From positions 8,559 through 72,558 of the IMG/VR virus record IMGVR_UViG_3300029698_000133: a DNA stretch of 64,000 nt, one strand, 5' to 3'. Positions 3,893 to 44,404 of this stretch are shown here, in pieces (within the stretch, counting starts at the first letter, position 1; each line of letters opens with the position of its first letter). Below the pieces are notes generated by a model. It did no database searches. It had not been told where the DNA came from and saw only the letters and a list, made by a program, of their open reading frames with translations. The position numbers and the translations under genes are program-made. The stretch is from a virus.

Positions 3893-4037
3893 GTGTACGC
3901 ACCTGAAGGACGTGCAGGAGTGGCTGGGACACTCGGACATCAAGATGACCGCGAACATCTACGGCCATCTGGACATACGCCGCAAGCGCTCCATCGCCAA
4001 CGGCTTGGAGCAAGCGTTGCCGCGATTGAAGCCGTAA
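3893..4037 (+). pseudogene. tyrosine recombinase/integrase C-terminal remnant (box II) truncated by the IS21 element
   Basis: THLKDVQEWLGHSDIKMTANIYGHL matches the conserved HxxR...LGH...Y C-terminus of phage integrases; only about 45 aa remain; lies immediately beside the tRNA. Confidence 0.6.
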
Positions 4038-4098
4038 AAACAAAAAAGCGCCAAATCCTTTCGGATTTGACGCTCCTGCTGACCTTGACAGCCATCTT

Positions 4099-4175
4099 TG
4101 GTCCGAGTGGCGAGAGTCGAACTCACGGCCTCTTGAACCCCATTCAAGCGCGCTACCAAACTGCGCTACACCCGG
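4099..4175 (-). tRNA. tRNA-Pro (anticodon GGG)
   Basis: Manual fold: acceptor CCGGGTG/CACTCGG (one G-U), D stem GCGC/GCGC, anticodon stem CTTGA/TCAAG with loop ATGGGGT (GGG, G37), T stem GTGAG/CTCGC with TTCGACT loop, encoded CCA. Confidence 0.8.
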
Positions 4176-4304
4176 TCAACCGGGCTGTCTCGAATCAGCT
4201 TGATTATTATAACTGACTGCACCGAGAATGTCAATAGAAATGTACGAATTTTATAAATATATTTTGCTTTATGACTGATAAAGGAAGGAAAGAAGGGATA
4301 AATC

Positions 4305-8467: not shown

Positions 8468-9439
8468 TTATTCCCTGAGCGTCCAGTACCACTGGCGCAT
8501 TTTTCTATAGCTTTGTATTCCCAGCACATGTTTTGTCTCAGCTATGGTTCTGCGACTTATTCCAGCTTCTCCAAGCCTTTCATAGATTTCTTTTGATGCC
8601 ATATCACCTTTTACAAGATACTGCTTCAAAAGAGCGCAAGCCATTTCCGTTTTTGTCTTATACTCCAAAGTCTGCACTTCTTGTTTTTCATCGCAGCTTT
8701 CAGATATGGAATCCAGCCATTGGAACCCGTAATCCTCTGTTATCGAGAAACTGATTTTAGACCCATCTGGTCCTAAGCTGTTTTTTATCTGGTGAACGAC
8801 ACGGATATCCATGTTTTCTGCATCGCGCTCAATCTGCAACACACTTCTTGCAGCCGCCACCACGTCAATGCTTCCAAGGCTTCTATACAAGCCTTTTATG
8901 CCTTCCTTTTTGTTCAAGTGCCCTATCAGCACAATGGCGCAATCATAGGTAGCCGCCCACATTCCAAGGTGCTGCATCAGCCGCCTTGCTTTTCCAGCAA
9001 TCTGCAAATCGGAGTCACTGGAGAGGTATGCTTGAATTGGGTCAATCACAACAAGCCTCGGTCGAAACGCAACGATTGCATCCCTAATGCGTTCATCATC
9101 GAGTGTCAGCCCACTGTTGACTTCTTCATTGATAAATGCCACTTTGCTGCAGTCTGCGCCCTGTTCTTCCAGACGGGGTTTTATCGTATCCGCAACCCCG
9201 TCTTCTGAGCATTGGTAGATAACCCTCTGTGGTTGCTCCAATGGTTTTCCGTCAGGAAAGGCACCTCCTGTGGTTATTTCAGCAATCAGATTCATCATCA
9301 TTGTAGACTTGCCATCACCGGGGTCTCCCTGTAGCAAGGTTATTTTTCCAATTGCAATATATGGATACCAGAGCCAGCGGACTGGCGATGATTCGACCTC
9401 ACTATACAGCGTCAAAAGTCCTTCTTGCACTCGTCCCAA
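8468..9439 (-). CDS. RecA-like AAA_25-type ATPase with C-terminal HTH (mobile-element RepA-like)
   Basis: Walker A GDPGDGKST, RecA-like core; C-terminal HTH region; 10 nt from the recombinase gene, so likely one operon. Confidence 0.6.
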   Translation of the reverse strand: MGRVQEGLLTLYSEVESSPVRWLWYPYIAIGKITLLQGDPGDGKSTMMMNLIAEITTGGAFPDGKPLEQPQRVIYQCSEDGVADTIKPRLEEQGADCSKVAFINEEVNSGLTLDDERIRDAIVAFRPRLVVIDPIQAYLSSDSDLQIAGKARRLMQHLGMWAATYDCAIVLIGHLNKKEGIKGLYRSLGSIDVVAAARSVLQIERDAENMDIRVVHQIKNSLGPDGSKISFSITEDYGFQWLDSISESCDEKQEVQTLEYKTKTEMACALLKQYLVKGDMASKEIYERLGEAGISRRTIAETKHVLGIQSYRKMRQWYWTLRE

Positions 9440-26338: not shown

Positions 26339-29300
26339 TTACTTGTAAACCGAATCGTCCTGGTCGATCATCTCATTGATCTTGTCAGCTACGATCTGTG
26401 CCAGCTCGTTATCGTTCCGGGCGTTGTAGCCGTTCACCGTGATGTGAACGCCGCCCAGATTCGTGTTCTTTGTTGTTCCGCCGCCGGCCAGAGCAGCCTG
26501 CGGAAGATTCCAACCGCTTGTGTTCATCCGGGGCATATTGATCTCTGGCAGGCTGAAGGAGCAGATTCCCGCCATCCCCTGCTGAACCTTAGAGGCCATA
26601 GATCGGATCTGCTTCAGCAGACCGTCCTCGCTGTCCCTGATGCCTCCAGTCAGCAGCCTCATGAAGTCAGGCATATAGGTGTCGGCATCGGCCAGCGGTC
26701 CTTCGTCCGGCACCGAGAAGTGCAGGAAACTGCGGATGCCGTTTGCCACGCTCTTAGCGGCATTGCCGACCCACGACACGCCTTTCTTGATGCCTCCAGC
26801 GATACCGCTGACCACATCCTTGCCCCATTTCACCGCCGAGGAAGCCACGTTCTTGACGCCGCTCCAGATGGAGGATGCCACGTTGCCGATGGCAGACGCC
26901 GCATTGGAGATGCCATTCTTAATGGCAGTCACACCATTGGAGAACACAGAAGTGACTTTATTCCAGATGTTGGTCACGCCCTCACGGAAACCATCGCAGT
27001 TCTTCCAGAGAGCGGTCAGCCCAAGGCCGACACCGCCGACTGCGGCCACCGCAATACCAGCAGGGCCAGCAAGACCAGCCAGTGCTGTACCTGCCGAGGC
27101 AAGCACACCGCCAGCCGAAGAAGCGATACCAGCCAATGCACTGCCTGCACCGGCTGCAAGACCAGACACCGTTGTGCCAACAGAACCGAACAGCCCCGCA
27201 ATCGCAGAACCAGCTGAGCCAGCGATGCCGGCCAGCGTGGAGCCTACACCGGAGAGCAGCCCGGACAGGCTGCTGCCAACACCGCCGAGCTTGGAGAGAA
27301 CACCAGTCGTAACGCTGCCGAGGTTCGACAAGATGCCGGTTCCGCTGCTGCCAAGGCTGCCCAGCTTCGAGATGACACCGGTGACACCTTGTCCCAGACC
27401 ACCCATCTTGGAGGTCAGCCCGGAGATCAGATTGCCGAAGTTCGAGACGATCTGTCCGCCATCGGCGTTGCCGATTTTCGACAGGAAACTCCCCATCTTC
27501 GACAGCAGACCACCGCCGCCATCCGTTCCCAGTGCATTGCCGAGGTTCGTGAGCGTCTCGCCCAAGCTGCCGAAGGTACTCTTCATGGAGCCGAGCTTGT
27601 CCACGATTCCGGTGACAGTACTGACCGTATCGCCCACCTTACTGATACCCTCACCCAGACCTTTCAGGAAATCCGAGTTGAAGGTGTCACCGAGGCTGCG
27701 GATCGCGTTGCCCAGAGAACTGGTCTGGTCGCTCAAGTCTCCGATAGAGGTCTTCATGTCGGAGAATCCCTGCTTCACTTCATCGCTCATGCTGCTAACC
27801 GATGTTTTGGTGATCTTTTCAAGGTCACTCCAGACAGACCTAAACTCGCTGGTCATGCCGTCCAGACCATTCATAAGCCCAGTTCGGATGCCGGATGCCA
27901 GCCCGCTTGCAGCCGACCGAACTCTACTTGTGCTGCCGCTGATCGTAGAGGCAAAGCCACTCACCACCGACTTCACCTTGTCGCCCATGTCTCCCACGGG
28001 CGTGTTCAGGTTGGTCTTCATGGAGCCAGACAATGTCTTGACGGCCTTGACGACCTTGTCTTGATTCTTCTTGATGCCGCTTGCCAGCAGCTTCATGAAG
28101 TCAGGCATATACTCGTCCGCATCAGACAGAGGGCCAGTGTCAGGCACAGAGAAGTGCAGCAGACTTCTGACTTTGCTTGCCACGTTCTCTGCGGCCCGGA
28201 CGACCGAGCCTGCCGCCGCACGAACACCGGCCGCCATCTGGGAGCAGATGTCACTGCCCCAGCTGTATGCCGAAGAAGCAATGGAGCTGAGAGAGTTGAA
28301 GTTGCTCTTGATGCTGGACACACCGGAAGAGACCGTGGAGCGCAGATTGGACATGGCACCGGACACCACCGACTGCACGCCGGAGAAGGTAGAGCTAGTC
28401 GTGGACTTCACGCCGTTCCAGCCCGAAGAAACCGTAGACTTCACTGCGTTCACAGCCGAAGATGCCGTGCTGCGGATGGTGTTCCAGCTGGAACTGAGTA
28501 CCGACTGGATGCTCGACCAACTGCTGCTGGTCAGGCTGCGGAGGTTGTTCCATCCCGCCGTGACGGAACTCTTGACCGCATTGACTGAGCTGGTGGTTGC
28601 ACTCTTGATGCTGTTCCAGCTCGTATTCAGCACGGTCTGGATGGAATTCCAACTGGACGTTGTCAAACTTCGCAGATTCGTCCACCCGGTCGTGACGGAA
28701 GTTTTCACTGCGTTGACCGATGCTGTTGTCGCACTCTTGATGCTGTTCCAGCTCGTGTTCAGTGCCGTTTGGATGGAACTCCAACTGGATGTTGTCAACG
28801 TGCGCAGGTTTGTCCATCCATTGGTAACGGAAGTCTTCACTGCGTTCACGGCTGTGGTGCTTGCCGTTTTAATGGAATTCCAGCTTGCCGTCAGGCTCGA
28901 CTGGATGCTGGACCAGCTGGATACCGTCAGGGAACGAAGCTGTGTCCAGCCGTTCGTCACTGCGGTCTTCACACTGTTCAGGCTGGTTGTCACGAAAGTC
29001 GTAATTCCGGTCCATGCCGTAGTGAGGTTGGTCTTGACCGCATTCCATGCCGTAGTGGTATCCGAAGCGATGCCGGACCACGCTGCCGACATGGATGCCT
29101 TGATGCTGTCGATCTGGGTCGTCACAGACTGTGCCATGCCAGTACAGGCAGTCGATACGGAGGTAGACACACCCGACCATGCGGTCTGGGCTTCCGCCTC
29201 CACACCGGACCATGCGTTAGAGGTATCCGTTTTCATCTGGGTGGTAGAGTCACTGGTCTTGCCGGTGATGGCATCCCAGATACCACCAAAGAATCCGGAG

Positions 29301-38647: not shown

Positions 38648-39499
38648 TCATTTCATGCACTCCAGCTGTTTCATCAGGACGTTATAGGAGTAATCCCCTT
38701 CCTCCGTCTTTCCGTCCATGTCAAGGACAGGACCGGCTTCCGCAGGGAGATCACTGGGCGGCTCCGTTTGAGCCGCAGGGGTATCAGGCTTGACTCCCAG
38801 ACGATTCAGGACGATTAGATCCATCTGACGGCTGGAGAAAAGGTGCCCTGCCGTATCCTGTTGGAACGGCTTCTTTTCTTCGCCCTCGCCCGGTTCTTCA
38901 TCGGGAGTCTTCTCCGGCTTATCGGGGTTCACCGGGTCACTGTCAGGTTCATCCTCTTTCTTTGAGAAAAGGATTTCATCCGCAAAGCCCAATTCCACGG
39001 CTTTCTTCGCATTCATCCACGTTTCGTTGGACATGAGGTTTGCGATTCGGGCATGGGACAGGCCACTCTTGGATGCGTAGGCGTTGATGATGCTCTCCTT
39101 GACCTCGTTCAACACCTCGATAGCTTTCTCCATATCCTTGGTGTTCCCCATCGCAACGGTACTGGGGTCATGGATCATCAGCATAGCAACCGGGCTCATC
39201 TGGACGGTATCTCCGGCCATGGCAACAACGGACGCCGCAGATGCAGCAATCGCATCGATCTTGACCGTGATGCTGCCCTTGTAGTCCTTGAGCATGGTAT
39301 AGATCTCGGCAGCAGCAAACACATTGCCGCCCGGGCTGTTGATCCAGACGGTCACATCACCCTCACCGGCATTCAGCTCATCCCGGAACATCTGCGGTGT
39401 AATTTCATCACCCCAGAAAGATTCCTCGTCGATGGGGCCTTCCAGCCGAAGGGTTCTGGTCTCGTCACTGTCCTTGATCCAGTTCCAGAACTTTTTCAT
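38648..39499 (-). CDS. ClpP-family prohead (head maturation) protease
   Basis: ClpP/S14 core (INSPGGNVFAAAEIYTML...MLMIHDPS), Ser-His catalytic context; overlaps the portal gene end. Confidence 0.85.
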   Translation of the reverse strand: MKKFWNWIKDSDETRTLRLEGPIDEESFWGDEITPQMFRDELNAGEGDVTVWINSPGGNVFAAAEIYTMLKDYKGSITVKIDAIAASAASVVAMAGDTVQMSPVAMLMIHDPSTVAMGNTKDMEKAIEVLNEVKESIINAYASKSGLSHARIANLMSNETWMNAKKAVELGFADEILFSKKEDEPDSDPVNPDKPEKTPDEEPGEGEEKKPFQQDTAGHLFSSRQMDLIVLNRLGVKPDTPAAQTEPPSDLPAEAGPVLDMDGKTEEGDYSYNVLMKQLECMK

Positions 39500-40896
39500 A
39501 TTGCTCTCCTTTCTTTCTGTCGTTTTGGCGTACTCTCACTCTGCCGGTTTTCGCTGTCAGGGGTTTCTTCCTCCGGCTGTGTCTGCTGAGGCTGATTCTG
39601 CTGGGCCGCGGCAGCCTTGTTCTGCTGCGCCAGTCCAGCATTCTTCAGCTTCACATAGCCACCGTTGAGGTAGTAGTCATCACCGCCCTGGTCAGCCGGG
39701 ATCAGATCCATGTTTTCCAGACGATGGATATCGTTGGGAGACAGAAAACCATTGCTGATGCCGGTGGCATAGCCGTTCATCCGGCTCTGGTAGTCGCCGC
39801 GCAGCAGACCGTCCACATTGAACTTCGGAAAGTAGGTATCCTGCTCTTCCTCCAGCAGCAGATCCTTGATGATGCCCTGCTCAATGCGGACAAGCCACGG
39901 AGTCAGGGAATGCATCACGAAGTTCAGCGACTGGTATTCGATGTTGGAGAAGGTCGCATGGGACAGATCCGCTACCAGATGCGGAGGCACACGGAAAATG
40001 CGACATATCTCCGTGACGGAGAACTGCTTGGATTCAAGGAACTGACTGTCTTCCGGCGGCAGCGATACAGGCTTGTAGGTCATGCCTTCTTCGAGAACCG
40101 CCACACGATGGGCGTTGGCTGCGCCACCGTATGCCGCTTCCCAGTTATCCCGGACTCGGTTCGGGTCTTTCATGACGCCGGGATGTTCCAGCACACCGCT
40201 GGGCTGAGCGCCGTTCTTGAAGAACGCCGAGCCGTACTTATCCACCGCAATGGAGGTGCCAAGGCTGTTTTTCATCATGGCAATCGGTGAGAAACCGATC
40301 AGGCCATTGAAGCCCAACCCCGGCACATGGAATATCTCATCCCGGCGAAAGTAGATATCCTTGTTCTGCTCTCCCGGAACTTCATCCGTATAGGCGTGGT
40401 AGATGTAGTACAGTTCTCCGCTTTCATCGCGATCCACTTCGACGTTTTCCGGCAGCAGCGGATACAGACCCAGTACCGTGTTCTTTCCATCCCGGACGAT
40501 CTGTGCGTAGGCATTGCCCCAGAGGAGCAGATGGGTCATCAGGGTCTCCCAGAAGACGAAAGCCGTCATCTCCGGGTTCGGCTGCCGATACAGGATTTTG
40601 TACAGCGGATGATCCCGTGCCTTTTCCTTGTTGCCGTTGTCATCCGTCACCCGATACAGATGCAGCGGCAGGGCCGCAATGGACTCTGCCAGCAGTCGAA
40701 CACAGGCATACACGGTCGGGATCTGCATGGCGGCTTTTTCGTCCACCTGCTCTCCTGCATTGGAACGACCAAACACAAAGGTCTGCCCGGAATCGCGGAC
40801 ATTGTCCGTGACCTCTGGCAGACCTTGTTTGGGTGGTGATTCTGTTTTGGGGGAGTCCCTTGGGTTTTCAAAACCTAGCCATTCCCAGAATGTCAT
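39496..40896 (-). CDS. portal protein, HK97 family
   Basis: 466 aa; portal motif pattern; positioned between terL and the protease. Confidence 0.85.
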   Translation of the reverse strand: MTFWEWLGFENPRDSPKTESPPKQGLPEVTDNVRDSGQTFVFGRSNAGEQVDEKAAMQIPTVYACVRLLAESIAALPLHLYRVTDDNGNKEKARDHPLYKILYRQPNPEMTAFVFWETLMTHLLLWGNAYAQIVRDGKNTVLGLYPLLPENVEVDRDESGELYYIYHAYTDEVPGEQNKDIYFRRDEIFHVPGLGFNGLIGFSPIAMMKNSLGTSIAVDKYGSAFFKNGAQPSGVLEHPGVMKDPNRVRDNWEAAYGGAANAHRVAVLEEGMTYKPVSLPPEDSQFLESKQFSVTEICRIFRVPPHLVADLSHATFSNIEYQSLNFVMHSLTPWLVRIEQGIIKDLLLEEEQDTYFPKFNVDGLLRGDYQSRMNGYATGISNGFLSPNDIHRLENMDLIPADQGGDDYYLNGGYVKLKNAGLAQQNKAAAAQQNQPQQTQPEEETPDSENRQSESTPKRQKERRAI

Positions 40897-40942
40897 TTTT
40901 CAGCAAATCCTTTCATTTTTTCTTTCCTTGTGTTCCAACAAG

Positions 40943-40951
40943 TGGTATAAT
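40943..40951 (+). promoter_or_regulatory. extended -10 promoter element TGGTATAAT upstream of the Abi gene
   Basis: TGnTATAAT consensus 34 nt upstream of ATG 40985. Confidence 0.5.
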
Positions 40952-40984
40952 ATAGTCTATACTGTTGCTTACGGAGGTTTTTCC

Positions 40985-41956
40985 ATGCTGACGATAAATC
41001 AGTTGATGCGATATCTGCGTTCCAAACATCATATTACTGTCAAAAGCAATCAGTCCCAGTCATTGCGCAACATGGGCTACTATCATGGTTTTAAGGGCTA
41101 TCGGTTTATCCGAACCCCGAACCAAAGGATTGCTTTTTCTTCGTTTGATGAAGTCTCTGCTTTAAACAATTTCGATATGAAATTGAAAGCGTTGTTTTAC
41201 CCTAAGGTCATGTTTATCGAAACTGCATTAAAGAGCTATGTGATTGAAGCCACACTTAAGGATTCTCATTCTGAGAACATCGACACAATCTTCGGTAAAT
41301 CAATCACAAACTACCGTTCCTTCACTCCAGGTAGCAGAAACTATCATCAGGAATACGCAAAACGCATGTCGCTTCGTAGCAAAATCAATAGTGCTTTGCT
41401 TCGTGATTATGGAAACAAAAAGCAAACCGTCAATCATTTTTTTGACACCGACCGGTCCATACCTATTTGGGCGGCTTTTGAATCCCTGGCACTAGGTGAA
41501 TTCGGAACTTTCTTTGCGTGTGCAAACGCGAATGTCAAAAAGAGTACTTCTGCAATACTTCACCTGCCCAGTCAACTTGACGCTGATGGAAGAATTACAG
41601 AGTTCATTATTTATTCAATCAAAGACCTCCGTAATGCTGTTGCTCACAACAACACTATTTTCGACACGCGGTTCCAAACTGGTGAGATCAATCAGCGTCT
41701 TGTTGCACTTTTAGAAACCGAAATAGGCATTTCAAATCTGGATTTCAAATATATTTATTCATACGTCATACTCCTAACCTACGTTCTCAGAAAAATGGGT
41801 GAAACCAAAACATCCTGCAAGCAATTTTTGAATGCGTATATTGCCTTGACCGATGAATTGCGCACACAACTCCCGGCAAATGTCTGCAATCAAATTCTAG
41901 GCACTCAGCAACGTCCACATCTGCGCCAGCTGCAAAATTTCATTTCCAATTCGTAA
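40985..41956 (+). CDS. abortive-infection protein, Abi_2 (AbiD/AbiD1/AbiF) family
   Basis: N-terminal block QSLRNMGYYHGFKGYRF...FDMKLKALFYPKVMFIETALKS matches the Abi_2 pattern (YY..gY...f...fD..LR..l...iE..lr); 323 aa; AT-rich; opposite strand to all surrounding phage genes. Confidence 0.7.
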   Translation: MLTINQLMRYLRSKHHITVKSNQSQSLRNMGYYHGFKGYRFIRTPNQRIAFSSFDEVSALNNFDMKLKALFYPKVMFIETALKSYVIEATLKDSHSENIDTIFGKSITNYRSFTPGSRNYHQEYAKRMSLRSKINSALLRDYGNKKQTVNHFFDTDRSIPIWAAFESLALGEFGTFFACANANVKKSTSAILHLPSQLDADGRITEFIIYSIKDLRNAVAHNNTIFDTRFQTGEINQRLVALLETEIGISNLDFKYIYSYVILLTYVLRKMGETKTSCKQFLNAYIALTDELRTQLPANVCNQILGTQQRPHLRQLQNFISNS

Positions 41957-41964
41957 GATTCTCT

Positions 41965-41992
41965 TGCATAATTTCTTTTCTTGTGGTATAGT
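41965..41992 (+). promoter_or_regulatory. second promoter TTGCAT-16-TGgTATAGT immediately downstream of the Abi stop codon
   Basis: Seen directly; would start a transcript at about 42000. Confidence 0.4.
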
Positions 41993-41997
41993 ATAGC

Positions 41998-42068
41998 TAT
42001 GAATTGCGGTGGTCGTCTTCGGACAACACCTTGAAAGAGCCTGATGCGTCGGGCTCTTTTTCTTTTTG
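41998..42068 (+). ncRNA. candidate 65-70-nt small RNA between the second promoter and the terminator
   Basis: Promoter, imperfect hairpin with TTCG loop (GGTGGTCGTC-TTCG-GACAACACC), then the terminator hairpin; no ORF. Confidence 0.25.
42034..42068 (+). terminator. rho-independent terminator (AAGAGCC stem / 10-nt loop / GGCTCTT followed by TTTTCTTTTTG)
   Basis: Perfect 7-bp stem plus a T-run of 11 with one C. Confidence 0.65.
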
Positions 42069-42072
42069 TCTT

Positions 42073-42309
42073 TTATTCTTTCTCCAGCTCCGGCAGACCG
42101 GCCAGACTGGTACCGAGGGAGGCCACGCCCGCCACGATCGCTGCGCTGCCTACCGCCATCCAGTCCACCGTACCGCTGGGCATCTGGGTCACGACCAGAG
42201 CTGCACCGGTCTGGAACATGGTCTTTGCGGCGCGGATACTTGCTGCGCGCCACCAGTCTGCACTCATCAGATACTTCATATTCTTATCCTCCATGATTTT
42301 GTATATCAA
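42073..42309 (-). CDS. small holin-like membrane protein (78 aa) between terL and portal
   Basis: Basic N-terminus (WWRAASIRAAKT), two predicted TM helices, acidic C-terminus; start overlaps the terL stop (ATGA). Confidence 0.4.
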   Translation of the reverse strand: MIYKIMEDKNMKYLMSADWWRAASIRAAKTMFQTGAALVVTQMPSGTVDWMAVGSAAIVAGVASLGTSLAGLPELEKE

Positions 42310-43931
42310 AAAACGATCATGTCACGTTCATCGTAGATGCTGCCCTGCTGCTGTCCTTCATTTCGGATGCAGCGGTCCAGTGCCATGATCGCAGCGACGA
42401 TACCGTCGATTTTCTCCGGCGACTTTACCTTGGTAGGCTTAATATTGCCGGCCGGATCAGTGTCCACGACCACATTGCCGGCCATCCATGCCATGATGGG
42501 GTTGCCGCCGTGAACGATACGTCCTTCCATCAGGAGCTTATAGAACTCCTTGGTGGGCGGGCTCATATCCTTAAACCCTTGTCCGAAAGGCACGACCGTG
42601 AATCCCATCCCCTCTAAGTTCTGGGTCATCTGCACCGCTCCCCATCGGTCAAAGGCGATTTCCAAAATATGATAAGTCTTGCCCAGTTCTTCGATGACTT
42701 TTTCGATGAACCCGTAATGGATGACATTGCCCTCGGTCGCCATCAGGTAGCCCTGCTGGAACCAAATGTCATAGGGCACAGATGCCCTGCGCACACGCTG
42801 GGGAATCGTATCCTCCGGAATCCAGAAGAACGGCAGCATGATGTACTTTTCCTCCGGGGTTCTGGGCGGGAACATCAGCACAAAAGCCGTGATGTCACCG
42901 GTGCTGGACAAGTCCAGTCCACCGTAACAGTCACGGCCTTTGAGGGCTTCCATATCGATTGGCTGGTTGCCGAGGTCATAGATGTGTTCCGGGATAAATC
43001 GGGTCAGAGAGGACACCCACATATTCAGACGGAGCTGCTTGAATACATTCTCCTCTGCTGGGTTGTCCAGTGCCTCTTGGTAAGCATCCCGGACGCGCTG
43101 GATCTGGATGGTCTGTCCCAGTGAGGGGTTGGCCTTATACCAGTTGACTTCATCGTGCCAGTCATCCTCATCGGTCAGACCATAGACCACCGGGTAAAAG
43201 GTGTGGTCAATTTTCCGACCGTTCAGCAGGTCAAGGGCTTTCATGTGCAGCTCATAGCAGATACTCTCCTTGTCCGTGCCGGCCGTGGTAATCAGGAAGA
43301 ACAGCGGCTGTTCACGGGCGTCACCGGAACCTTTGGTCAGGACATCGTAGAGCTTGCGGTTGGGCTGGGCATGGACCTCATCCAGCACCAGACCGGACAC
43401 ATTCAAGCCGTGCTTCGTGCCGACTTCCGCTGACAACACCTGATAGAACCCGGCGTTGCTGTAATTCACAATGCGTTTGGTTGCCGCCATAATCTTGCAG
43501 CGTTTCATGAGTGCCGGCGTCATCTGCACCATCTGGTTGGCAACGTCAAAGACGATGGATGCCTGCTGCCGGTCGGCGGCAGCGCCATAGACTTCTGCGG
43601 AGGGCTCGTTATCGGCAAACAGCAGATACAATGCCACCGCAGCGGCCAGCTCCGACTTGCCGTTCTTCTTTCCGATTTCGACATAAGCTGTGCGGAACTG
43701 TCTGTTTCCGCGCTCATCCACAATACCGAAAACATCCCGGATGATCTGCTCCTGCCAAGGGAGCAGCCAGAACCGCTTGCCCGCCCACTTGCCTTTGGTG
43801 TGTCGGAGGTTTTCGATAAAGCGCACGGCGCGGTCGGCCTTGGCTTTATCGTAGTGACAGGTCGGCAGCATGAAGCGGCTGGGCTTGTAGTCTTTGAGTT
43901 TTGGGTAGTTCTTCGGTCTGCTCTCCATCAT
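42306..43931 (-). CDS. terL: terminase large subunit
   Basis: Terminase_1-type ATPase (Walker A region VEIGKKNGKSE, LVLDEVH Walker B) and nuclease C-terminal half; 541 aa. Confidence 0.9.
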   Translation of the reverse strand: MMESRPKNYPKLKDYKPSRFMLPTCHYDKAKADRAVRFIENLRHTKGKWAGKRFWLLPWQEQIIRDVFGIVDERGNRQFRTAYVEIGKKNGKSELAAAVALYLLFADNEPSAEVYGAAADRQQASIVFDVANQMVQMTPALMKRCKIMAATKRIVNYSNAGFYQVLSAEVGTKHGLNVSGLVLDEVHAQPNRKLYDVLTKGSGDAREQPLFFLITTAGTDKESICYELHMKALDLLNGRKIDHTFYPVVYGLTDEDDWHDEVNWYKANPSLGQTIQIQRVRDAYQEALDNPAEENVFKQLRLNMWVSSLTRFIPEHIYDLGNQPIDMEALKGRDCYGGLDLSSTGDITAFVLMFPPRTPEEKYIMLPFFWIPEDTIPQRVRRASVPYDIWFQQGYLMATEGNVIHYGFIEKVIEELGKTYHILEIAFDRWGAVQMTQNLEGMGFTVVPFGQGFKDMSPPTKEFYKLLMEGRIVHGGNPIMAWMAGNVVVDTDPAGNIKPTKVKSPEKIDGIVAAIMALDRCIRNEGQQQGSIYDERDMIVF

Positions 43932-44404
43932 CCGCCACCTCCCAGCAGGTTTTCCATCTCATCAGCAGCATCCGCAGGGCTGCAATCCGAGGCAATGATC
44001 CGGCTTCGGGAGGATGGGGTCAGACCGAACTGCTCGGCAAAGCGGTTCATGATTTTCAGATAGGTCTGTGCAATGGAGACCTGCGGCACCTGCTGCCAAT
44101 AGCCGGAGGGCGTTTTGACGATGGTGCCGTGCTGGGTGATGAATTCTTCTGCTTCTTTCCATCGTGCGTATGCCTGACAATAGCCGGCGAAGGCAGCCAT
44201 GTCCACTTCGGTCAGGATGCCGATGGCTTCCATCTGCTTGGCAAGACGCCGCCATTCTTTTTTTGCTTCCGGCTCCAGCCATTTCGGACACGCCGGTGCT
44301 TTCTTTGTGGGCTTCGGTTCGCTGGTATTCAGCGGATGCTTGCCCGGATTGCCTTCCAGTTCCTTCATGGCGGTCGGCTTCGGTTTTCTGCCTCTGGTAG
44401 CCAT
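43928..44404 (-). CDS. terS: terminase small subunit (P27 family)
   Basis: 158 aa; KPKPTAMKELEGNPGK N-terminus typical of P27-family TerS; overlaps terL. Confidence 0.75.
   Translation of the reverse strand: MATRGRKPKPTAMKELEGNPGKHPLNTSEPKPTKKAPACPKWLEPEAKKEWRRLAKQMEAIGILTEVDMAAFAGYCQAYARWKEAEEFITQHGTIVKTPSGYWQQVPQVSIAQTYLKIMNRFAEQFGLTPSSRSRIIASDCSPADAADEMENLLGGGG

Follow-up and report, generated by a model that had tools for sequence, protein, structure and literature searches.

A conserved structured RNA behind a prophage Abi_2 gene and its possible role as antitoxin to a HEPN protein

What does the AT-rich island between the portal and terminase genes of a prophage encode, and do its gene and the RNA that appears to trail it work together? 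We analysed this locus in a 64,000-nucleotide viral sequence (IMG/VR record IMGVR_UViG_3300029698_000133, positions 8,559–72,558), referred to below as the window. The island is a cassette that comprises an abortive-infection gene of the Abi_2 family (abi) and, directly behind it, a candidate small RNA of ~65 nt. The original prediction, made from the sequence alone, had proposed the gene, two promoters, a hairpin and a terminator, and all of these held up apart from two small counting slips. Comparison of homologous loci indicates that the trailing RNA element is real, strongly conserved, structured and linked to abi; its stems covary and it is preceded by a conserved promoter sequence of its own. 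Three points go beyond the original prediction: the RNA belongs to another family than the known abiF motif, its position is on the opposite side of the gene, and copies of it occur without the gene in lytic phages.

Structure and conservation of the trailing RNA

The trailing RNA consists of a single-stranded 5' leader, a first hairpin capped by a tetraloop and a second hairpin followed by a U-run (Table 1). Both hairpins had been proposed beforehand, the first by its TTCG loop and the second as a terminator at 42034–42068, and both were recovered. The 68-nt RNA folds with a predicted energy of –25.3 kcal/mol (z –3.8), and none of 200 shuffled sequences is as stable. Covariance model R1 matches the window at 42001–42065 with 81.6 bits (E = 4e-20), the only strong match in the 64 kb. 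When a hand-drawn structure is applied to 21 diverse sequences, 92.9% of the alignment cells pair, and 13 of the 19 base pairs vary in both partners. This degree of pairing is reached by none of 500 shuffles, and sliding the partner strand leaves 42–59% paired. The corresponding figures for 46 distinct sequences aligned to R1 are 97.5% and 15 of 19, and these lean towards the model because the alignment was fitted to it.

Hairpin 1 is the most conserved part and likely the protein-binding core: all seven of its pairs are supported, and six change on both sides. Both partners vary in nine of the 12 pairs of hairpin 2, whose apex, GAUGCGUC, is fixed. Leader positions G1, A2, A3, U4 and G6 are at least 90% conserved across phyla (alignment A1), and the leader is kept in the one-hairpin version of Streptococcus satellite phage Javan277. 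Such sequence conservation of the unpaired nucleotides is as expected of a protein-contact surface.

The RNA lies on the abi strand, as one strong R1 match per locus 44–47 nt past the stop codon, in 116 of 122 loci of this Abi_2 subfamily. It accompanies all four plasmid homologues (30–33% protein identity) as well as phage homologues at 29–33%, and the complete layout of promoter, GAAUUGC leader, UUCG-capped hairpin with internal loop, short linker and terminator hairpin is found down to 29–35% protein identity. The hosts are Clostridia, Bacilli, Spirochaetes, Bacteroidota and Desulfovibrionaceae. Compared to the gene, the RNA is better conserved in most Firmicutes relatives, with leader and hairpin 1 84–100% identical (68–74% in two relatives) where the abi coding DNA is 62–72% identical. 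The window carries one RNA copy. A Spirochaetes metagenome-assembled genome (locus L016) has two tandem RNA units after abi, at 4029–4093 and 4102–4176; the second is weak (20.9 bits) with a different terminator hairpin, and the pair recalls type III antitoxin arrays and the double motif of RCd22 from Clostridioides difficile.

One explanation of the element is that it is only the cis-acting 3' end of the abi mRNA, a terminator with a stabilizing hairpin, and that the "promoter" before it is incidental AT-rich sequence. In its favor, hairpin 2 qualifies as a canonical intrinsic terminator; abi and the RNA have no terminator between them, so that the RNA is the 3' untranslated region (UTR) of abi anyway, and some copies without abi lie directly behind other genes with no obvious promoter, such as the endolysin gene in L213. 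However, ordinary terminators do not combine covarying stems with a leader, internal loop and pair of loop sequences that are preserved between phyla. The –35 and –10 hexamers are fixed while the spacer between them is free, and the promoter outlives deletion of abi. Finally, the copy in Bacillus phage SPO1 cannot be a terminator, because it has no U-run and lies within a tRNA gene cluster. We regard a purely cis-acting role as quite unlikely.

The second promoter proposed after the abi stop codon is present, although its TTGCAT element begins 7 nt past the stop rather than 9 and its spacer is 17 nt rather than 16 (P_sRNA in Table 1). Across 47 distinct upstream regions, a TTG-type –35 element (mostly TTGCAT) and a TATATT or TATAGT –10 element, TG-extended in 32, are fixed in position, whereas the spacer varies in sequence and is 16–18 nt long; the –10 box stands 6–9 nt before the first RNA base. 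P_sRNA is also kept in loci without abi. This pattern suggests that the RNA is made from its own promoter. Past the promoter, the region had been described as free of open reading frames (ORFs). An ORF of 11 codons does start at 41999, with its ATG at the predicted transcription start, and could in principle specify a leaderless peptide, MNCGGRLRTTP (41999–42034). Many relatives lack the ATG, however (AAGAATTG in L010–L014), and substitutions obey base pairing, not codon logic. The peptide is excluded because its start codon is unconserved, and the earlier statement is nearly right.

Upstream of abi, the predicted extended –10 box, TGGTATAAT, is found in its expected place (P_abi in Table 1). 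It has no well-placed –35 element; a TTTCAT block resembling the –35 of the RNA promoter sits 29 nt away, displaced by ~12 nt relative to that promoter. A TGnTAnWWT box occurs at most 70 nt upstream of the abi ATG in 25 of 45 distinct relatives, and in 21 of those it is at 29–33 nt. The abi 5' UTR is ~25 nt long and unstructured. The two promoters of the window are imperfect direct repeats (40910–40955 versus 41963–41996; 83% over 23 nt and 93% over 14 nt, repeats D2 and D7), which suggests promoter duplication together with a deliberately weaker toxin promoter. Since P_abi has an extended –10 only and a second promoter precedes the shared terminator, the layout would yield more RNA than toxin mRNA.

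A small, separately promoted RNA that ends in a terminator and has a conserved single-stranded 5' end also resembles seed-bearing regulatory RNAs. It might act by base pairing, in type I-like fashion as antisense to the abi mRNA or in trans on host or phage transcripts. RNAduplex predictions for 12 loci argue against this: the RNA–abi mRNA duplex site differs in each of them (a crude test of the cognate mRNA only, with duplex length unrestricted), and the duplex energy in the window, –37.3, is no better than that of shuffled RNA (mean –39.2). The abi 5' UTRs are unrelated between loci while the RNA is constant, and a 7-nt leader conserved across phyla would require an equally universal target. 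A base-pairing regulator is thus very unlikely. Its type I toxin–antitoxin or cis-antisense form was rejected, as abi and the RNA share a strand and the duplex sites are neither conserved nor above shuffles. The lack of conserved complementarity to the abi mRNA favors a protein-binding mode over an antisense one.

The Abi protein and its relation to the RNA

The Abi_2 gene is present on the plus strand as predicted, and its 323-residue translation contains the quoted motifs NMGYYHGFKGYRF and FDMKLKALFYP. The protein matches Pfam Abi_2 (PF07751) over profile positions 2–184 of 184 with E = 1.9e-27 and 97.2 bits (cut-off 25.6), PADLOC AbiD with 6.8e-23 and PHROG 2158, "abortive infection resistance protein", with 2.9e-29; NCBIfam has no name for it. 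A close relative of the gene, 98% identical, occurs in Lawsonibacter asaccharolyticus (L001). In 15 aligned sequences of 20–80% identity, including C. difficile AbiF with RNQCAH, residues R216, N217 and H221 are invariant and form an Rx4-6H motif. The equivalents of R216 and H221 in C. difficile AbiF (AbiFCd), R202 and H207, are required for toxicity (PMC12373285).

An AlphaFold2 model of the monomer, predicted from a shallow alignment of 61–85% identity, has a mean predicted local distance difference test (pLDDT) of 84 and a predicted template modeling score (pTM) of 0.84. Its sole significant Foldseek neighbor in the Protein Data Bank is PbAbiF bound to non-coding RNA (8vz6_A; E = 1e-4, probability 1.00, template modeling (TM) scores 0.55/0.59). 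The two proteins share 18% identity, near the detection limit of a sequence search alone (E = 0.019), and identity to C. difficile AbiF is 20%. A phmmer search of 1.84 billion cluster representatives (clusters at 50% identity) returned 138 clusters at E ≤ 1e-30 and 689 at E ≤ 1e-3. The protein is thus an ordinary member of a known family, Abi_2/AbiD–AbiF, with an all-helical AbiF-type HEPN fold according to the model, and it belongs to a distinct, moderately sized Abi_2 subfamily outside the PbAbiF and AbiFCd clades.

An obvious candidate for the trailing RNA is the abiF motif, RF03085. It has no match at E ≤ 10 in 40700–42300 of the window and is absent from 16 related loci (10 searched at E ≤ 1, plus six further). 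The positive controls matched: in phage phiC2, upstream of abiF, with 37.6 bits, and in a close relative of PbAbiF with 58.5 bits, 20 nt upstream of the ATG. The latter locus was found with a PbAbiF fragment search, whose matches were short gene fragments that gave one usable locus. We can therefore rule out that the trailing RNA is RF03085, given its absence from the window and the 16 loci while both controls matched. In consensus, RF03085 forms one hairpin bulged by 6 nt on its 3' side, CCCGCCAAGCCUCUCAACGAUGCUCAAAUCGGCGGGU, and is unlike a leader with two UNCG hairpins in both sequence and shape. Nor does Rfam 15 hold any other family at E ≤ 10 around the window RNA, where only chance-level eukaryotic snoRNA and miRNA models appear; at the SPO1 copy it finds nothing except tRNAs.

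Our preferred explanation, to which we assign a probability of about 60%, is that the cassette is an AbiF-type defense or addiction module in two parts, consisting of a HEPN RNase toxin and a small structured RNA that silences it, in inverted type III-like order. The toxin gene would come first, behind a weak promoter with an extended –10 only. The RNA would follow it with no intervening terminator, and so would end every abi mRNA, while a better promoter just past the stop codon would make it separately and so maintain an excess of RNA over toxin. By binding to the Abi dimer, the RNA would keep it inactive in the lysogen. An incoming phage that halts host transcription, degrades the RNA or supplies a trigger would free Abi, which would then cleave cellular RNA, stop growth and abort the infection; loss of the prophage would be penalized by the same logic. 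The antitoxin role is proposed from homology of the protein and an analogous arrangement, and transcription, RNA–protein binding, neutralization, toxicity and a defense phenotype of this cassette are likewise inferred. PbAbiF and C. difficile AbiF are experimentally established RNA-neutralized toxins, and the idea of an antitoxin-like RNA matches these 2025 experiments on two other Abi_2 proteins (PMC12373285, PMC12737573, PMC13064643). The decay of related loci points the same way. Truncated abi genes occur without the RNA (L117, L124), and the RNA with its promoter is retained after deletion (L202, L206/207, L220) or replacement (L231) of abi; this pattern is compatible with a toxin–antitoxin pair.

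Several observations weigh against RNA neutralization of Abi. The RNA has no detectable similarity to RF03085, so that its binding to Abi is argued by analogy alone. Two abi genes appear intact with no RNA at L065:1277–2381 and with an RNA cut after its first 7 nt at L104:2467–3068, which is unexpected because an unopposed toxin should be lethal and which argues against strict dependence of abi on the RNA, although both are short metagenomic contigs. More distant Abi_2 proteins at ~25% identity (L127–L130: Javan62, Enterococcus phage IME197, Erysipelothrix phage SE-1 and Javan333) have neither this RNA nor RF03085 within 700 nt; other Abi_2 clades may have further RNA partners, or none. In lactococci, the RNA-encoding region associated with AbiF is essential for the antiphage effect (PMC13064643), and by extension the RNA may be more than an inhibitor here.

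This last result suits a different explanation, in which the Abi RNase requires the RNA as its cofactor, sensor or guide-like activator. Abi would then be inactive or non-specific on its own, and phage infection would act through the RNA. AbiF is regarded as the ancestor of the RNA-guided Cas13 (PMC12737573), intact abi genes without RNA, as in L065 and L104, would be more tolerable, and tight linkage and conservation fit an activator equally well as an antitoxin. On the other hand, the RNA neutralizes toxicity in both characterized relatives, the leader is too short and too invariant for a variable guide, and RNA-only remnants and phage orphans make little sense without a partner protein. An activating RNA is thus unlikely.

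Orphan copies, the insertion site and its surroundings

A scan of viral contigs with the hairpin-1 pattern found 26 contigs: 14 with abi, four remnants at former abi sites (L220, L231 and the RNA-only pair L235/L236) and eight without abi in the sampled flanks. The orphan copies in contigs without abi have the full structure and score 43–80 bits; one lies directly after an endolysin gene and others after large ORFs of unknown function. A BLAST search of cultured phages with the window RNA gave no match. With a more AT-rich orphan copy, BLAST led to unannotated DNA of strictly lytic SPO1-like Bacillus phages in ~30 phage records, including SPO1, SP8, SP82G, CampHawk and Goe2/3/9/10. These copies keep the leader, the UUCG loop and the GAUGCGUC apex, and their stems carry compensatory changes; those of SPO1 and Goe3 lie inside the phage tRNA gene cluster. 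The SPO1-like phages have no homologue of the abi subfamily of the window. The orphans resemble abi-linked RNAs from the lineage of their hosts, with 82% identity between Goe3 and a Psychrobacillus (Bacillales) locus (the Psychrobacillus allele is L025) and 87% between an AT-rich phage and a Clostridium locus.

It is a tentative possibility, doubtful at present, that this RNA serves a widespread Abi_2 subfamily as antitoxin and has been captured repeatedly by phages as an anti-Abi decoy. Such capture is the simplest reading of the orphans, although an independent function of the RNA is at present equally plausible. There is a precedent (Blower et al. 2012, cited in PMC13064643): pseudo-ToxI allows phage PhiTE to escape via an antitoxin-like RNA, selected in the laboratory. 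If the decoy proposal were true, the orphans would be an analogous RNA anti-defense element that is natural and widespread. The SPO1-like copies offer a tractable test of antitoxin-RNA mimicry by lytic phages in nature.

The cassette itself is a discrete low-GC mobile insertion within the packaging and head module. The AT-rich island that had been noted between the minus-strand terL and holin-like genes and the portal gene is distinct in the GC profile, with 0.38–0.43 over 40850–42050 and 0.52–0.59 in both flanks, and the cassette with its 40% GC lies inside a prophage of 55% GC. On the minus strand the gene order is TerS, TerL, holin-like ORF, portal, ClpP-type protease and major capsid protein; the remainder of the prophage is encoded on this strand too, and abi is on the opposite one. 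We compared the site in 80 viral contigs related through the holin-like gene. In ~70 of these it is empty and the holin-like stop overlaps the portal start with no insert. Seven carry the abi insertion of ~1.18 kb, with alleles 100, 91, 90 or 75% identical to the window protein. In the remaining three, only 134–141 nt lie between the holin-like gene and the portal, comprising the promoter and the RNA but no abi ORF. Simple promoter-to-promoter recombination would not readily account for such RNA-only loci, as the L206 junction matches neither promoter of the sampled alleles. The insertion of the cassette replaced the final few codons of the holin-like gene and gives the portal gene a new ribosome-binding region. 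At the same phage site, L231 (IMGVR_UViG_3300023487_000088) has a MazE/AbrB antitoxin and PIN toxin pair in place of the abi ORF at ~1720–2580; the RNA (83.9 bits) and its promoter remain, as do the final ~25 nt of abi.

The unit of abi and RNA is also found in unrelated contexts: in genomes of Clostridia, Erysipelotrichia, Spirochaetes, Bacteroidaceae and Desulfovibrionaceae, in streptococcal satellite phages and one Streptococcus gallolyticus phage, and on Enterococcus and Streptococcus plasmids. For prophage biology, the window offers a clean example of a mobile, putative defense cassette dropped between translationally coupled packaging genes.

Table 1 Coordinates of the cassette, its flanking genes and related RNA copies (window positions unless a locus or accession is given)
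Feature	Position	Strand	Remarks
abi+RNA cassette (moron)	40897–42072		~1.18 kb, 40% GC; between portal start codon and holin-like stop
P_abi, extended –10 box	40943–40951	+	33 nt before ATG; putative promoter
abi ribosome-binding site, GGAGG	40973–40977	+	
abi gene	40985–41956	+	323-aa Abi_2 (AbiD/AbiF group) HEPN protein, presumed RNase toxin; ATG 40985, TAA 41954–41956
HEPN active-site codons	41630–41647	+	R216-N-A-V-A-H221 (RNAVAH), from alignment
P_sRNA	41964–41992	+	TTGCAT 41964–41969, 17-nt spacer, TG-extended –10 TGgTATAGT 41984–41992; putative promoter
Trailing RNA, ~65 nt	41999–42066	+	predicted start ~41999–42001; end in U-run after 42060
5' leader, GAAUUGC	42001–42007	+	single-stranded, sequence-conserved
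Hairpin 1	42008–42030	+	4-bp outer stem, 3x2 internal loop, 3-bp inner stem, UUCG tetraloop
Hairpin 2	42033–42060	+	12-bp terminator stem, apex GA-UGCG-UC, then U-run to ~42067; from terminator scan
Portal gene	39496–40896	–	cassette flank
r1t-holin-like small ORF, 78 aa	42073–42309	–	PHROG 443 holin 4e-12; Pfam r1t holin sub-threshold
TerL	42306–43931	–	cassette flank
TerS	43928–44404	–	cassette flank
Promoter+RNA-only loci	L202:1293–1357; L206 and L207:2738–2802	–	minus strand of those loci
SPO1 orphan copy	NC_011421.1 ~28975–29035 = L239:2506–2566		46 bits (R1)
Goe3 orphan copy	KY368640.1 31700–31769 = L237:1501–1564		53 bits (R1)
SPO1L4 orphan copy	OQ921339.1 = L238:1500–1563		59 bits (R1)

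The surroundings have some further features. The holin-like ORF is placed between TerL and the portal gene, not in a lysis module, and is translationally coupled to the portal gene where the cassette is absent. Inside the 5' end of the portal gene, at 40750–40855, there is a near-perfect hairpin of ~100 nt with –42.5 kcal/mol on the mRNA strand (z –5.1) and –53.1 kcal/mol on the other strand. It is kept with compensatory changes in related phages whether or not the abi cassette is present; it could be a packaging or regulatory signal and is unrelated to abi. The sole tRNA of the window is a tRNA-Pro(GGG) at 4099–4175 on the minus strand.

Comparison with known RNA-controlled toxins

The closest parallels to the window cassette come from AbiF-type pairs of HEPN toxin and RNA antitoxin, which were characterized only in 2025 and have so far been based on one upstream motif, RF03085. 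The published RNAs of AbiF, AbiD and AbiD1 are all placed upstream of their genes (PMC13064643). We found no description of a downstream Abi RNA in the literature, a statement that does not extend to the supplement of the primary Cell 2025 paper on PbAbiF, which could list this clade.

AbiFCd and its RNA RCd22, from C. difficile prophage phi027 and phage phiC2 (Saunier et al. 2025, PMC12373285), resemble the window cassette in several respects. A single prophage Abi_2/HEPN toxin lies among late genes, the R...H motif of HEPN is conserved, and the toxin is associated with a structured RNA (~100 nt for RCd22), a SigA-type promoter and an intrinsic terminator (PMC12373285). RCd22, however, lies upstream of abiF in the 5' leader, where it also attenuates transcription, and contains two copies of RF03085 (PMC12373285), whereas the window RNA is downstream with its own putative promoter. 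PbAbiF with its RNA AbiFr (8VZ6; Zilberzwige-Tal et al., Cell 2025) is described as a HEPN homodimer neutralized by one hairpin RNA per monomer (PMC12737573, PMC12373285, PMC13064643), the kind of arrangement that we propose here. It differs from the window protein, with 18% identity and a TM score of ~0.57, and a close relative of PbAbiF has RF03085 upstream.

The lactococcal AbiF/AbiD systems belong to the same Pfam and PADLOC family as the window protein. Their flanking non-coding region has diverged less than the gene, with 68–80% conservation compared to 46–65% (PMC13064643), a pattern that recurs in most Firmicutes relatives of the window locus. By their published description, these systems differ in being plasmid-borne and in having the RNA region upstream (PMC13064643).

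Classical type III toxin–antitoxin systems (ToxIN, AbiQ, CptIN and TenpIN) share the principle of an RNase toxin inhibited by a cognate RNA held in excess. Their toxin has the ToxN/AbiQ fold, and their antitoxin is an upstream tandem repeat that is cut by the toxin, with an intervening terminator that sets the ratio (PMC12373285). The window module, in contrast, has a HEPN toxin and a single RNA unit downstream (two units in L016 only), and the ratio would be set by the second promoter. With regard to gene layout, the RNA also resembles the enterobacterial small RNAs derived from 3' UTRs, such as DapZ and MicL, which are nested at the 3' end of an mRNA, share its terminator and have their own promoter near the end of the coding region. 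These act by Hfq-dependent base pairing on trans targets, whereas the window RNA has no evident pairing with its own abi mRNA.

The subfamily is spread over several phyla and over prophages, satellites and plasmids, and covariance model R1 can be used for its annotation. The window locus broadens the view of how HEPN toxins recruit RNA to include an RNA that is a 3' UTR with a promoter of its own. Its trailing RNA, a family not in Rfam 15, appears to be a second, unrelated RNA partner for Abi_2 proteins, with the toxin gene first.

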